IMG/VR virus record: IMGVR_UViG_2636415673_000005
DNA from: a virus
Lineage: Duplodnaviria > Heunggongvirae > Uroviricota > Caudoviricetes
Length of the DNA: 22,467 nucleotides
Strand: one strand, 5' to 3'
Shown: positions 10,847 to 22,467 of the stretch, one piece after another
How the letters are laid out: the number at the start of each line of letters is the position of its first letter
Numbering within the stretch: position 1 is the stretch's first letter
Made by a program: the position numbers and the translations under genes
Notes under the pieces: model-generated
What the model was told of the DNA's origin: nothing
The model's database searches: none
What the model saw: the letters and a program-made list of their open reading frames with translations, nothing else

Positions 10847-11184
10847 CAGATCACCACTTCGTCAAACTGACACGAAAAATCGGTATAGGTGATATGTTCT
10901 GTTGCTGACCACGTTCGACACACCACTCTGATTTTTCTGTTAATACCCGGCGGGCGCCAAAAAAAAGATTTATAGCCTTCATGCCGGGCTAAAAATTTTT
11001 CAAATGAATCACGTTCATTCGCCTCAACTTTGAAATCACAGGTGAAAACGCGCAGAGAATGATTAAGTCCATTTGGACTTCGTTGCTCATAACCATCGCC
11101 AAATCTTACAGTTTTTATCGATGGTTTATTTTCTGTTTTCATTCCATCCTCTGGTAACCAGTGAAATTCTTCCGTATTAGCCAC
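10846..11184 (-). CDS. M: Minor tail protein M
   Basis: 112 aa containing …[16 protein letters not shown]…[16 protein letters not shown]…, lambda gpM-like; in the conserved position between the tape measure and L. Confidence 0.85.
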
Positions 11185-14100
11185 TTAACATTCCCCCATC
11201 ACGTCGCATATTTAACAGATTGCCCTGCACCCGCTGATCAACCATCCCCATAAGTGCTTTTATTGCCTGAGGGCCAATCTCTCCATTCTGGCCGTCATTT
11301 TGAACAGTGATTTGGTATACAGGGGCATAGGTAATATCTCCGCCTCCATTACCACTTTTACTATTAACAGCTCTGACACCAAGAGAACCATCGGAAGTTC
11401 GTGTTAATGGCATAATGGCTTCCGGACCAGCCTCACCAAAAACACCAGCCCCTCTTGCAAAAGCAAAAAATTGCGGGGAATCATAAATACCGTTCGAATA
11501 CGTGTTCAATGACGGAGACTCATAAACACCGCCCTTTGCATTCGGAATAAATTTACTAATAGCACTCCCGATAGTTCCTAAAATCCCCCCAGAAGAACTG
11601 TTACTAATGCTGTAGAAAATCCCAGTAATTGAAGCCTTTAATGCTATTCGACTAAGATCCGAAATCACGGAAGTAGCGAAAGAACGAAAATTTGCTTTGC
11701 CTGTCGTGACAAAATCACCCAGCGCATCGGTCATTCCATCAAACATCTGAGTCGTGGTTGATTTTATCTGCTCACTGATATCCTTAGTGTCATCCAGCCA
11801 GTTATTGAATCCCTGGGAGGCACCACTAACCCAGTCTCCTGCCTGAATATCGAGCTGCTCGTTTTTCTGTCTGACAATTTCTTTTTCTCGTTCCAGAGCA
11901 TCATTCAGAGCCTGCATTTTCTCCTGAAAAACATGATTTGACATCCCACGGGATTTATCTGCATAGTCACGTTCAAGTTGCAGACGCTGATTGTTATATT
12001 CACGTTCAATCCGCAGTAATTCCTGCTGGCGTTGCTGATTTTTATCGCCAACCCCATAACCAGCAATCTGAATATCATACCCCTGTTGACGATTATCAAT
12101 CGAAGCCTGCAATGAATCACGCCATGCAGCTATTTCGGCGGATTCCTTGATTAGCCTGTTATTTTTTTCAATCGCAACATTTTTCTCCATCAACGCGGTT
12201 ATTTCTTCCCGGTGTAAGAGAAGCGATTTCTGATCCTTGGTTAATTTCGATGACGGTCGTGACTCCAGGTCGGCAATCTGCTGACGCCACTTAACCAGTT
12301 CCTGTTCAGAGGAACTTAATTTAACGGTTAATTCAGTTTGTGAACTTAGTAACGCATTCTGTTGATTCAGATGATCAATCATTCGTTGGGCAGCATCATC
12401 CGAATAACCTTTCGCCTTTGGTTGCTTTGGATCTTTATAACGCTCATTTATTTGAGCGATAAGATTATTATATTCTTCCTTTGAATACTGACTCTTTAGT
12501 TTTTCCAGTTTTGCAAGTTCACTAGCTCTCTGCTGCTCCCGGGTCTGATATTGTTTTGAAAAGGCATCTGCTCTCTGTCTGAGTTCAATTCCTTCCTGTT
12601 GTCGCTTGTTGTAATCGTTTATTGATGAATTTAGTACGTCCTGAGCAATTTTTTCTGCTTGAAGTACGCCCAATTGCTGCTTTAATCGTGCCAGCCTTTT
12701 ATTTTGAGCTCCGCCATCTCCAATGCCACCTAACCCGAAAACTCCGGGTCGGGTATTTTTTTCTATTTCATCAATTTGACGGAGAACATCTGAGATTTTT
12801 TGATCAAGGGAGGCCTCACGGCCAATATCCAGCATGGAATCCCATGCCCATTTTGCGGAGTCTGCGACAGCTTTCCATGCAGTCTCAAGATAACCAAGAT
12901 TTTCTTTAATCTGGTTGGTGCGCTGGATCATTGAGGATGAGTATGCTTCTGTCGCAATGCGGGCGGCCTCCTGCTGGTTCCCTTCATCCTGTAGCGCCTT
13001 AATCTGGTTATAAGTCGCAATTGTCAGAAAATGGTACTGATCATTAAGTTTTGATATGGCACTGACAGGATCCTTTGCAATTTCATTGAAGTCATTAACC
13101 AGTTGTTCGGTTGATATTCCTGTTACTTCGCTCGTTTTTACTATCGCTGTCGTCACTTGCTCCAGCGAACTGCTCGCTACCTTTCCCGAACGCACAAGCT
13201 GGTTTAATACTGCCGCCGCAGCGCCAGTTGTCGAATCAGCCGCATTCCCGGCACGTTGAACTATATCGGCCAATTGCCCGCTGGTTGTCCCCAACTGATT
13301 TCCGGTAAGAATAAGAGACTTATTAAATTCGTCCTGCTCCTGAGAGCCTTTATAGTAAGCCAGCCCTAAGACGCCAACGGCTGCTGCGGCCAGGGTAAAA
13401 GGATTAATTAATCCCAGCACATAAGAACCAACACCTTTGATCGCCGGGCCAATCCCACCGAACATATCTTTTAGCTGGCCGCCCTGCTGCATTAACACCA
13501 TAAAAGGCGACTGACCAGTGGACAACCCAACAACAATATCCGTCATTTGTGCAGGCAACATGCGCATAGCAAAAGCCGTTTGTTTTGCCGACATTCCGGT
13601 TTTGCTTAATTGAGATTGAGTAACCTCAAGCTCACTCCGCATAGCACGAAGTTTTCCAGAAAGTTCCTCATACATTTCAGGAGAGAGCATCCCCTTAGCT
13701 TTTGCTTCATTGAGCTGTTTCTGTTGTTCTACCAGACGATTAAAAGCAGTTCCGACAGGGTCAAGTTGAGCAATCAGACGTTGCAAAGCAGCAACCTGTT
13801 CATCATGCGCTTTTGCTGCTTCTCGCTCTGCCTGAGCCTCTCCGGTAAGCTCTCGCCGTGTTTCCTGTATTTTTCGGCTATAATTCTCAAACTGAGAACC
13901 ATTTATTTTCCCGGATGCAAACGCAGCATTAAGTTCATCCTGCTGTTGTTCAAGATTTCTTAGCGCCGCAGCCAGAGGGTCGATCTTGTCCAGCATTCTT
14001 TGAAAGGCCTGAGTCTGCGCTTCCTGCTGGGCGGCAGCAAGTTTTCCGGCCTTCTCGGCTTCTCTCTGCGCTTGCGCAACCCCGCTCAATTCCTCTGTGG

Positions 14101-14410
14101 TTTCATTAAGTTTACGGACAAGAAATTCATATTCTTCTTTATCAATAAGCCCTTTATCGAAAAATTTCTTTAATTCAGAATAGCGTCGACCGACAGTATC
14201 AATTGCGGCACCAACTGGATCAATAGCTGCTTTTAATTTTGCGAGCGCGTTCTTCTCATCTTCTGTTGCCTTAGTCACTTTCCCTGCGCTATTTGCAGCA
14301 GTTTCCCCGGCCTGCGTCATTTTGACTAATGAGGAGGTCAGATTGTCAGCATTATTTTTTGCTCCAGTGCTATCAATAATTATTGCGAGACGCGAGGTTT
14401 GCTCTGCCAT
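11177..14410 (-). CDS. H: Tail tape measure protein
   Basis: 1077-aa ORF in the canonical position after G/GT. Mostly alpha-helical, with N-terminal ~70-aa repeats, a hydrophobic/Gly-rich central segment, and a C-terminal region (…MLNSESP…) typical of lambda H-type tape measures. GGAG lies upstream of the ATG. Confidence 0.9.
13570..14230 (-). repeat. Three diverged ~70-75-aa tandem repeats in the N-terminal part of the tape measure protein
   Basis: Seen in translation: [21 protein letters not shown]…, [21 protein letters not shown]…, [21 protein letters not shown]…, each followed by an E/Q/A-rich helix. Boundaries are approximate. Confidence 0.5.
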
Positions 14411-14435
14411 TTATTAAAACTCCAGACAACAAAAA

Positions 14436-14451
14436 GCCCACCGAAGTGGGT
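14436..14451 (-). terminator. UUCG-tetraloop hairpin with U-tract in the gap before the tape measure gene (attenuator-like)
   Basis: Seen in sequence: minus-strand RNA CCCAC-UUCG-GUGGG followed by CUUUUUGUUG, about 25 nt upstream of the tape-measure start codon. Confidence 0.35.
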
Positions 14452-14573
14452 TTCAGGCGACATAATAGTAGATATAGCGATTACGAGGCCACGCAATGCT
14501 TTTCTCCAGGAGCATCATCGATTTAATTAAAGACACCATCACATCTCTGTAACAGAGTGTACGTAATTAACAA

Positions 14574-14894
14574 CTACACACACTGCTCCTGAAAATACTG
14601 GTCATCCAGTGCAAAGATCACTGCTTCAAACTCATCGCGCTCAATCAATACCGGATGAGTGGCTAAATATTCATTTATCTCTGTCAGAGATAAAGGCAAA
14701 GGCACCCCGGTCATTCCAGCATAACGTCGGGCACGGGATATTACCGAATAGGCGTACAACAATTCCTTAAGCACCGGGTCTATTTCTGGTTCCGGTATCG
14801 GTGGCAACCTGAGTTTTTCTCGCTTCCATCTTGCCTTTTCCCCCCTTTCTCCCCCGAACTCCGATAACCACCGCTGGGCGGCTATGGCTTTTTT
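14574..14894 (-). CDS. T-like frameshift extension of the tail assembly chaperone (expressed only as a G-T fusion)
   Basis: The -1 frame is open from the slippery site at 14888-14894 down to the stop at 14574 (…AIAAQRWLSEFGGERGEKARWKREKLRLPPIPEPEIDPVLKELL…). The ORF-track 'start' at 14807 is a TTG, and there is no independent ribosome-binding site. Confidence 0.6.
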   Translation of the reverse strand, partial: KKAIAAQRWLSEFGGERGEKARWKREKLRLPPIPEPEIDPVLKELLYAYSVISRARRYAGMTGVPLPLSLTEINEYLATHPVLIERDEFEAVIFALDDQYFQEQCV

Positions 14895-15343
14895 ATCGTA
14901 TCCTGCTTCTGCTGCTCTTTACCCTGGGCGATGCTGGCTGCTTCTGCAAGGATCTGCCAGTACAACTCTGGATTCTGCTTAAGCAGCGCGATCCCTCGTT
15001 CTGGCGTATATTCCAGTGCAACCTCAGCACCATTAACCAGTTCACCAACCCCTTTCCAGTCTTTCAGCAGATAACGAGCAGCATTATCAATGAGTAAATC
15101 ATCAACAGAATCTACCTCGGAAACCTTTGAAATATCAAACTCCTTCGTTCCGACGTGCAAACTGGCATCCATTTTCTCAATGTGACGACGGATTAATGCA
15201 TTACGGGAGCGATACTGATCGTTATCGCTGCTTGCCACCAACAGTTTTAACCCGTCTATAGGTTTTAAGTCCTTCATTGGCGTAAACCAGCGTTCTCCAC
15301 CGATGATAATTTTCTGATTAAGAATAAACATCCATAACCTCAT
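14882..15343 (-). CDS. Tail assembly chaperone (gpG-like)
   Basis: About 150-aa acidic protein between the major tail protein and the tape measure, ending in the slippery sequence. An alternative start is the ATG at 15331, which has GAGG 5-8 nt upstream. Confidence 0.65.
   Translation of the reverse strand: MRLWMFILNQKIIIGGERWFTPMKDLKPIDGLKLLVASSDNDQYRSRNALIRRHIEKMDASLHVGTKEFDISKVSEVDSVDDLLIDNAARYLLKDWKGVGELVNGAEVALEYTPERGIALLKQNPELYWQILAEAASIAQGKEQQKQDTIKKP
14888..14894 (-). promoter_or_regulatory. Programmed -1 ribosomal frameshift slippery heptamer A_AAA_AAG (G to GT)
   Basis: Seen in sequence: minus strand …ACG AUA AAA AAG CCA UAG. The zero frame stops two codons later, while the -1 frame continues in frame with the downstream ORF (14888-14807 = 81, divisible by 3). 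Confidence 0.6.
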
Positions 15344-15352
15344 TCAATGCGT

Positions 15353-15379
15353 CCCCCTGTAGTGCAGTACCACAGGGGG
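15353..15379 (-). promoter_or_regulatory. 8-bp stem-loop in the major tail / chaperone intergenic region, overlapping a possible ribosome-binding site for the first chaperone ATG
   Basis: Seen in sequence: CCCCCTGT (15353-15360) pairs with ACAGGGGG (15372-15379), with an 11-nt loop. No U-tract follows on the minus strand, so it is not a classical terminator. Confidence 0.4.
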
Positions 15380-15391
15380 AATAACGGAAAA

Positions 15392-16354
15392 TCAACTAAT
15401 CGCATCAGCACTGGCTTTTGCGATCACGGCAGTCGGGGAGCATTTTTTTCTGGTTATCGTAGGTGCTTCATCTGCTGCGGTAATGCTCAATTGAACCTGG
15501 ATAATGTCAGTATTACCCCCATCAGGCCATTCACCTGACACCTGAACCTTCGGGAAACTGAAAGTGTATGCCCCCTCTCCATTCGAAAGCGTGAAGCTGA
15601 ACGGAACTGTTTCTCCAGTCAGTGTTTTACTCCAGATTTCCCACGCGGCTTTAGACCATGAAAGCGTCACCGTACCGGACGGTGTAAAAGTAGTCGGAAT
15701 ATTTGCTCCTGCATAAGGCGAGCCAGTCCCGATACAACGCTGTGTCTGGAGTTTGTTATCGAACTGAATATCAAAACTGTCGATACAAAAACCGTTACCT
15801 CCGGCAACACCATTCAGGCTTACTGCTGAAACCGCCTTAAACGAATAGCGTAACTTTCCTGCACTATCCACAGGTTCGCCTTTGATAAAATTCGTATCAT
15901 CGGCCTTTGATTCCCAGCCCAGCCCGGCAAAGGTTACGGTCGCTGTAATATCGCCGTCGTTAGGGATCTGCATTTTCCATGAGCCAACCTGCGCTCCTCT
16001 GACGACAGAGGCAATTCCGACATCGGACGCATAGGTCGCCAGAGAAAATGTTATTCGCTCATTCCCCATTGTCAGAGAATCGCCTGACCATTCCGCGCCG
16101 AAACAGGATGCAAGAAAATCATCATGTTGACCCCAGCGAAATTTGGTACCAACATCACCGCCGACATCCACAGTGCCAGGCGTCGCCCCCTGAGCCATCC
16201 GGGAGCCACCAATCTCATTATTTTCGCCTTTATTCTGGGTGGGTTTTACTCCCCAGCTTGTGCGTTTTAATAAACTCCAGTCACCACTTGCTGGCGTAGT
16301 GCCTGCAACTGTCTCCCGGATAAATGCCGAGATAACCTTTGCACCTGAACTCAC
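15392..16354 (-). CDS. Major tail (tube) protein
   Basis: 320 aa, Gly/Thr/Ser-rich, immediately upstream of the G/GT chaperone pair, which is the conserved position of the major tail protein. AGGAG lies upstream of the ATG. No sequence-level match recalled. Confidence 0.7.
   Translation of the reverse strand: MSSGAKVISAFIRETVAGTTPASGDWSLLKRTSWGVKPTQNKGENNEIGGSRMAQGATPGTVDVGGDVGTKFRWGQHDDFLASCFGAEWSGDSLTMGNERITFSLATYASDVGIASVVRGAQVGSWKMQIPNDGDITATVTFAGLGWESKADDTNFIKGEPVDSAGKLRYSFKAVSAVSLNGVAGGNGFCIDSFDIQFDNKLQTQRCIGTGSPYAGANIPTTFTPSGTVTLSWSKAAWEIWSKTLTGETVPFSFTLSNGEGAYTFSFPKVQVSGEWPDGGNTDIIQVQLSITAADEAPTITRKKCSPTAVIAKASADAIS

Positions 16355-21374: not shown

Positions 21375-22467
<1,093 letters not shown>

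Follow-up and report, generated by a model that had tools for sequence, protein, structure and literature searches.

Tail genes and the predicted chaperone pair

The window, by which we mean the whole stretch of viral DNA analysed here (22,467 nucleotides, Caudoviricetes, IMG/VR record IMGVR_UViG_2636415673_000005), carries a block of tail genes on the minus strand in the order tube, G, T and tape measure. The features of this block and of the junction between G and T are listed below.

15392..16354, minus strand: gene for the tail tube (major tail) protein, adjoining the putative chaperone pair on its upstream side (Pfam Phage_tube_2, E 1.9e-32; phrog_290)
14882..15343, minus strand: G-like tail assembly chaperone open reading frame (ORF) in the zero frame, which gives 153 aa when counted from its first ATG
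14885..14918, minus strand: overlap of 11 codons, the only stretch in which the zero and -1 frames are both open
14894..14888, minus strand: A_AAA_AAG, the slippery heptamer, read as ATA AAA AAG (X_XXY_YYZ phase) and separated from the G stop by a single codon
14574..14888, minus strand: T-like segment in the -1 frame, 104 codons plus TAG, reachable in the window only as a C-terminal extension of G
14808..14888, minus strand: trans-frame linker AIAAQRWLSEFGGERGEKARWKREKLR, the first 27 -1-frame codons after the slip, with no ATG, GTG or TTG
14861..14887, minus strand: local hairpin CCAUAGCCGCC-CAGC-GGUGGUUAU.CGG, directly 3' of the heptamer (dG -14.7 kcal/mol)
11177..14410, minus strand: tape measure protein gene (Pfam TMP_2, Tape_meas_lam_C and TMP_4; phrog_24)

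The tube gene is named 'phage tail tube protein' by RefSeq in identical Escherichia coli DNA, and a gap of 163 nt separates the T-like segment from the tape measure gene. The G ORF alone matched phrog_313 'Tail assembly chaperone' (E 3.1e-46, 159.1 bits). The virtual fusion of G and T scored above G alone against the same family (E 4.9e-51, 174.8 bits), and its residues 5-253 aligned, as a single segment spanning the junction, to positions 13-246 of the 258-position profile. This fusion was collinear with the full-length phrog_313 and phrog_8233 chaperone profiles. The original prediction had called this arrangement that of a tail assembly chaperone pair, and both the position between the tube and tape measure genes and the phrog_313 match agree with it.

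Other family matches were more limited. The T-frame part matched phrog_1189 (E 1.7e-36), and its match to Pfam PF23812 Phage_TAC_18 (20.3 bits, E 6e-4) fell below the gathering threshold of 27 bits, with two of six family members matching. G had no match in the copies of Pfam and NCBIfam searched, and homologues of G carry the precomputed tag PF27119.1, an entry missing from that Pfam copy. Sequence and profile searches of the PDB returned no match, and an AlphaFold2 model of G built with 27 homologues was of low confidence (mean pLDDT 47.3).

Anatomy of the slip site

The G ORF ends in GAT ACG ATA AAA AAG CCA TAG, with its stop codon at 14884..14882. Eleven codons ahead of this stop, at 14918, the -1 frame becomes open, and its next stop is the TAG at 14576..14574. 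Since the zero and -1 frames are jointly open only in 14885..14918, any shift between them must fall there, and A_AAA_AAG is the sole canonical heptamer in that overlap. The original prediction had placed an in-phase A_AAA_AAG in the ORF end ATA AAA AAG CCA TAG, followed by a -1 frame open for about 104 codons to 14574 and free of stops between 14888 and 14807. The sequence is as it described, with all coordinates correct; we counted 104 codons and found no such stop.

A slip at the heptamer adds 104 codons to G and gives a virtual fusion of 256 aa from the first ATG, with the junction (marked here by a slash) reading ...QDTIKK/AIAAQRWLSEF... The start of G itself probably lies slightly downstream of this first ATG. 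A GAGG precedes ATG 15331 (M5 of G) with a spacing of 6 nt. All 27 homologues compared keep this methionine, and the majority of them start with it. Given this spacing and invariance, ATG 15331 is the likely true start, so that G is probably 149 aa and the GT fusion probably 252 aa. A fusion of about 256 aa, as had been predicted, is thus correct when counted from the first ATG, but the likely start shortens it to about 252 aa.

The earliest ATG, GTG or TTG of the -1 frame is TTG 14807, which is codon 28 after the slip. Gene callers start in this frame at TTG 14759 (61 aa) or GTG 14774 (66 aa), and neither start is conserved. An AAGGA lies 4 nt before TTG 14759. The earlier statement that the T ORF begins at a TTG and lacks an ATG or ribosome-binding site of its own agrees with TTG 14807 as the first start codon, but has to be qualified by this AAGGA.

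We compared these features with what would be expected by chance in the window. The string AAAAAAG occurs six times against 5.66 expected, so the heptamer alone shows no enrichment. In the 20 main minus-strand ORFs there are 22 in-phase X_XXY_YYZ heptamers, and a long open -1 frame follows only the A_AAA_AAG at 14894..14888, with 104 open -1 codons compared with 28 or fewer at the remaining in-phase heptamers. Across the same 20 ORFs, about 1.5% of codon positions have at least 104 open -1 codons ahead. We regard the comparative data as the decisive support for the predicted G/T frameshift.

Conservation of the frame relation, the slip codons and the linker

Searching with the virtual fusion (tblastn), we found relatives in Klebsiella, Erwinia, Pseudomonas and Acinetobacter phages, and relatives in which both parts were matched always gave two pieces, corresponding to two frames. 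Scans with the T alignment of one-genome-per-species contigs and of IMG/VR added 92 further loci. The resulting set of 100 related loci (23 distinct junctions) extends from Escherichia to Pseudomonas, covering Enterobacterales and Pseudomonas, and two Acinetobacter phages were analysed separately. Wherever a locus of the set yielded both parts, T lay in the -1 frame with respect to G.

The slip codons are likewise conserved. Among seven G proteins with 22-69% identity to the G of the window, Acinetobacter phages included, K152, the lysine encoded by the AAG of the slip site, is one of seven invariant columns, and the zero-frame sequence past K152 cannot be aligned. At the homologous codons, the 23 distinct junctions carry the following sequences.

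A_AAA_AAG: 14 of 23 (most Enterobacterales)
G_GGA_AAG, the heptamer of lambda: 4 of 23 (Serratia, Pantoea, Mixta, Pseudomonas and IMG/VR loci)
G_GAA_AAG: 3 of 23 (Pseudomonas)
C_GCA_AAG followed by TAA: 1 of 23 (Erwinia phage Gungnir39)
G_GGG_AAG: 1 of 23 (a Pectobacterium prophage)

Both Acinetobacter phages have G_GGA_AAG at the aligned codons. The signals on either side of the slip are much more mobile. Across the 23 junctions the G stop lies 0, 1, 7, 20, 24, 25 or 35 codons past the AAG, and the earliest T-frame start codon ranges from codon -17 to codon 59, falling after codon 27 in most lineages and being conserved in none. With both stop and start wandering in this way, the conserved feature is the slipperiness at one codon pair together with the -1 relation. 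The original prediction had described the frameshift as conserved, and it is so in these respects: the -1 relation holds in 100 loci, the AAG lysine is invariant, and the linker is selected only in the -1 frame, as set out next.

Conservation of the T-frame protein begins with the residue directly following the slip (AI.AQ.WL.EFGGE.GEKA.W.REKL.LPPIPEPEID). Over the 27 start-less linker codons, pooled pN/pS was 0.23 for the -1 frame, compared with 1.28 and 1.42 for the zero and +1 frames, respectively, with synonymous sites saturated in distant pairs (pS above 0.7). Purifying selection acts on the linker in the -1 frame alone. The linker is translated in that frame, and in the window it can be entered only by a frameshift.

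This pattern bears on the possibility that G and T are two separate genes, with T made from an internal start (TTG 14807, GTG 14774 or TTG 14759) and no fusion formed. Gene callers do annotate a 61-aa or 66-aa ORF in the T frame, and the AAGGA before TTG 14759 resembles a Shine-Dalgarno (SD) sequence. However, in the 27-43 codons ahead of these internal starts the protein sequence is conserved, and purifying selection acts there in the T frame alone. Most relatives have no start codon in that stretch, and the earliest start shifts by lineage. In addition, two annotation pipelines disagree on the start, and a fusion collinear with full-length phrog_313 and phrog_8233 profiles is hard to reconcile with independent genes. 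We consider separate initiation quite improbable.

The same alignments allowed us to weigh whether the reading frame is changed by RNA polymerase rather than by the ribosome, through transcriptional realignment on the run of six A residues. Homopolymer runs can cause transcriptional slippage (PMC5009743, PMC3711429), and the site in the window is such a run, but the runs reported to slip efficiently are longer than 7 A or 8 T (PMC3711429). Moreover, relatives carry the heteropolymeric G_GGA_AAG or G_GAA_AAG at the same codons, sequences on which the polymerase cannot slip, and conservation applies to the AAG codon and to the phase of the heptamer rather than to a homopolymer. Slippage of the polymerase therefore appears highly improbable. 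We infer that the slip is ribosomal and of low efficiency, in the range of a few per cent for a bare heptamer.

It might also be argued that the two frames are the remains of one ancestral chaperone ORF, decayed in a cryptic prophage after a 1-nt indel split it. The locus belongs to Rac-type prophages, its K-12 copy lies within a deleted, cryptic element, and rare versions fused in frame exist (P0001 and P0025). Against decay, each of the 23 distinct junctions has the -1 arrangement, with synonymous sites saturated (pS above 0.7), it occurs in inducible phages as well, and the slip site sits at the same invariant codon. As for the fused versions, P0001 arose from a deletion between repeats and P0025 is truncated at its N terminus. 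We find a broken gene extremely improbable as an account of the locus. The in-frame fusion in P0025, a Providencia stuartii protein, has the junction ETIKK/VIEAQKW, which is the one predicted for a product of programmed -1 frameshifting.

Relatives without a canonical heptamer, those with C_GCA_AAG plus TAA, G_GAA_AAG or G_GGG_AAG, can be read in either of two ways: weaker sites suffice, or some of these copies are decaying. The three lineages that lack X_XXY_YYZ (Gungnir39, the Pseudomonas phages and the Pectobacterium prophage) keep the -1 architecture and the conserved linker, and the Pseudomonas phages with G_GAA_AAG have a stronger hairpin downstream. We tentatively raise the idea, which we think somewhat doubtful, that at its core the signal conserved across the family is one invariant lysine codon, AAG, and not the canonical two-tRNA heptamer.

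Candidate stimulatory elements

Our search for a conserved stimulator at the slip site gave none. The original prediction had proposed looking for a stimulatory stem-loop or pseudoknot downstream of the heptamer, and what we found was a lineage-specific hairpin that folds no better than shuffled sequence. For the hairpin at 14887..14861, the z score over 43 nt was -1.5, with 18 of 200 shuffles folding equally well, and it ranged overall from -1.0 to -1.5; the fold of the downstream 88 nt had a z score of 0.08. A relative with 93% T identity already has a disrupted hairpin, and all more distant relatives lack it. We rejected it as a defining part of the site on these grounds, and it is probably incidental. 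More broadly, folding 50 nt downstream in 16-17 representatives revealed no conserved RNA structure, with most z scores near 0.

An AGGA 6 nt upstream of the heptamer, which follows Q-E/D codons, was considered as an SD-like stimulator and rejected, as it is missing in several lineages. With neither a conserved RNA structure nor a conserved SD-like element, the site appears to be a bare heptamer. An Rfam scan of the whole window found nothing at the slip site. The only Rfam match in the window is isrC, located far from the slip site.

Proposed mechanism and comparison with known frameshift systems

Taken together with the gene order and family matches, the alignments make it very probable that G and T are the tail assembly chaperone pair of a Rac-type lambdoid E. 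coli prophage and that they are made by programmed -1 ribosomal frameshifting. Most ribosomes would reach the TAG of G and release a short G-like chaperone, the full-length YdaY. In a minority, tRNA-Lys on AAA in the P site and on AAG in the A site would slip back by one base and re-pair on AAA AAA, and these ribosomes would go on to read 104 more codons in the -1 frame, giving a GT fusion of roughly 252-256 aa. By analogy with lambda, the G part may coat the tape measure protein while the rare T extension recruits the tail tube protein, and these binding partners of the G and T domains are suggested by that analogy. The efficiency of frameshifting would then set a fixed ratio of G to GT.

In function and architecture the pair is a G/GT tail assembly chaperone frameshift. 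It resembles lambda G/GT in gene order (major tail or tube protein, G, T, tape measure), in having a downstream frame that is -1 and start-less, in placing close to the end of G a heptamer of the form X_XXY_YYZ whose last codon is AAG, and in relying on a bare heptamer, apparently without a conserved stimulator. Some members of the present family even use the G_GGA_AAG of lambda at the homologous codons. The lambda heptamer was reportedly shown by Levin and colleagues in 1993 to suffice for frameshifting, and Xu and colleagues are said to have found in 2004 that the G/GT arrangement is conserved without sequence similarity.

There are also differences from lambda. The window has A_AAA_AAG instead of G_GGA_AAG, its tube protein belongs to the Phage_tube_2 family, and the 163-nt gap before the tape measure gene contrasts with the overlap of T and H in lambda. 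Profile comparison with hhalign, in which each part reached a probability of 0.1%, gave no indication that either is related to lambda G or T, and the PHROG families are disjoint (313/1189 here, 42/39/32165 for lambda G/T). Judged by sequence, the pair is not a homologue of lambda G or T. With respect to efficiency, the lambda gpG/gpGT ratio is given as 30:1 in the review by Atkins, whose reference list includes Levin, Hendrix and Casjens 1993 and Xu, Hendrix and Duda 2004, 2013 and 2014 (PMC5009743), and frameshifting of 6-7% was measured for an HK97-like chaperone cluster (GeneTack paper, PMC3711429).

The slip site had also been described as dnaX-type. This is accurate for the heptamer, which is identical to that of dnaX and would act through the same host translation machinery by tRNA-Lys slippage, but not for the stimulators of dnaX, which are absent here in conserved form. 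In E. coli dnaX (tau/gamma), A_AAA_AAG has an SD-like element on its upstream side and a stem-loop on its downstream side (PMC3711429, PMC4344849); dnaX needs both of these flanking stimulators, and its frameshifting reaches about 50% (PMC3711429). The SD element of dnaX lies about 10 nt upstream, compared with a non-conserved AGGA at 6 nt in the window, and its stem-loop lies about 5-6 nt downstream, whereas the hairpin in the window abuts the heptamer and is not conserved. The outcome of the shift differs as well, since it truncates the dnaX product and here extends the product by 104 residues.

Acinetobacter phage vB_AbaS_TRS1, a distant relative, has the same protein family and the same -1 arrangement. 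Its T part is 39% identical to that of the window, and its G aligns with the invariant slip-site lysine. It differs in using G_GGA_AAG and in having a G that runs 26 codons past the slip site. For the members of the set that retain only A_AAG, such as Gungnir39 (GCA AAG TAA), there is a precedent in Bacillus subtilis cdd, in which a -1 frameshift at CGA_AAG was reportedly described by Mejlhede and colleagues in 1999, a paper cited by the Atkins review (PMC5009743). That gene is not a phage chaperone, and the window, unlike cdd, has a full heptamer.

The locus in E. coli prophages and its current annotation

The G ORF is the full-length form of YdaY, the RefSeq name of a gene of the E. coli Rac prophage. 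Several E. coli chromosomes, as well as induced phages of the vB_EcoS series, carry DNA with 100% identity to that of the window, and 1074 of 5426 complete E. coli genomes contain matching DNA. The ydaY copy of K-12 MG1655 has lost its 5' part to a deletion that left the heptamer and the entire -1 frame intact, with the -1 frame unannotated.

In intact prophages, RefSeq and GenBank list YdaY, often as a K-12-style 119-aa model, and sometimes a 'hypothetical protein' of 61 aa or 66 aa. Among the records of E. coli and close-relative phages that we inspected, none had a slippage annotation at the G/T pair. In contrast, TRS1_18/TRS1_19 of vB_AbaS_TRS1 is annotated as a joined (slippage) tail assembly chaperone CDS. 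The G/GT class of frameshift is already textbook knowledge, no slippery site of E. coli is better known than A_AAA_AAG, and slippage is already annotated within this protein family in TRS1. Gurvich et al. 2003 (EMBO J 22:5941) reportedly put forward ydaY itself as a candidate gene in which A_AAA_AAG frameshifting is utilised. What is left as new is an annotation gap at a widespread E. coli prophage locus and a natural series of slip sites.

Implications

The G/T pair is mis-annotated in the records inspected, with inconsistent starts and missing slippage. Correct annotation would give YdaY a predicted function, that of a tail assembly chaperone, and would add a GT product of 252-256 aa. The interchangeable slip sites at one homologous codon pair also offer a possible test set for frameshift predictors. 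If the more tentative suggestion that the AAG codon is the conserved core were true, one-tRNA slippage on A_AAG, together with a stop codon or a hairpin, could replace the heptamer in tail chaperones, and the strength of the heptamer and the strength of the stimulator would trade off against each other in a way that holds the ratio of G to GT.

Initiation of the upstream chaperone ORF

The region between the tube gene and G, the upstream tail chaperone ORF, contains one strong predicted structure.

15353..15379, minus strand: hairpin with a 12-bp stem, CCCCCUGUGGUA / UACAGGGGG, located after the tube gene stop and ahead of the start of G

Folded within 70 nt, this hairpin reached -24.2 kcal/mol (z -2.5) and was equalled by 1 of 200 shuffles. 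Because its 3' arm holds GGGGGA, the candidate Shine-Dalgarno sequence for the first G ATG (15343), the hairpin would bias initiation towards the second ATG (15331).

The tube gene itself contains a heptamer of the slippery type.

15449..15443, minus strand: in-phase A_AAA_AAA, 16 codons 5' of the tube stop

It is probably incidental, since the -1 frame stays open for just 12 codons beyond it.

Variation at the frameshift junction

Four Pseudomonas relatives (L017, L018, L004 and L005) carry a hairpin located 3-6 nt 3' of the slip site, which could act as a compensating stimulator. In the lineage whose site is the weaker G_GAA_AAG, a stronger downstream hairpin, GCCCGCUUCC...GGGAAAGCGAGUGGGC, reached -15.7 to -17.2 kcal/mol with z about -1.1. 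L017, with the canonical G_GGA_AAG, has a similar structure, the strongest of these (-18.5 kcal/mol, z -2.8).

An E. coli protein, P0001, is an in-frame fusion of G with T, the -1-frame segment, and appears to derive from a deletion between repeated GCAGAAGCAG motifs, which lie immediately 5' of the heptamer. In L062-L066, a lineage 93% identical in T, the G stop has changed from TAG to TTG, so G is extended by 35 zero-frame codons over the T linker, the start-less first part of T.

Annotation of YdaY

G corresponds to full-length YdaY, and the loci concerned are 2493..3160 in L101 (E. coli K-12 MG1655) and 1760..2427 in L102. The YdaY ORF is 149-153 aa long in intact prophages, yet RefSeq uses the truncated 119-aa K-12 model, and the -1 frame is either without annotation or given as a 66-aa hypothetical protein. 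K-12 retains the heptamer and the entire 104-codon -1 frame.

A small RNA at the head-gene end

The head-gene end of the window has a full-length match to an Hfq-binding sRNA.

22206..22328, plus strand: isrC, Rfam RF01387 (150 bits, E 5e-37)

The T/tape measure junction

Downstream of T, the intergenic region contains both a small ORF and a terminator-like hairpin.

14411..14573, minus strand: gap of 163 nt from the T stop to the tape measure start
about 14539..14453, minus strand: ORF of 28 aa, MVSLIKSMMLLEKSIAWPRNRYIYYYVA, within this gap
14450..14437, minus strand: terminator-like hairpin CCCAC-UUCG-GUGGG with a U-run, 3' of the 28-aa ORF and shortly 5' of the tape measure gene

K-12 retains this hairpin, with a slightly altered loop. 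Klebsiella and Pseudomonas relatives carry one to four additional ORFs at this junction, so moron-type insertions may occur at this site.
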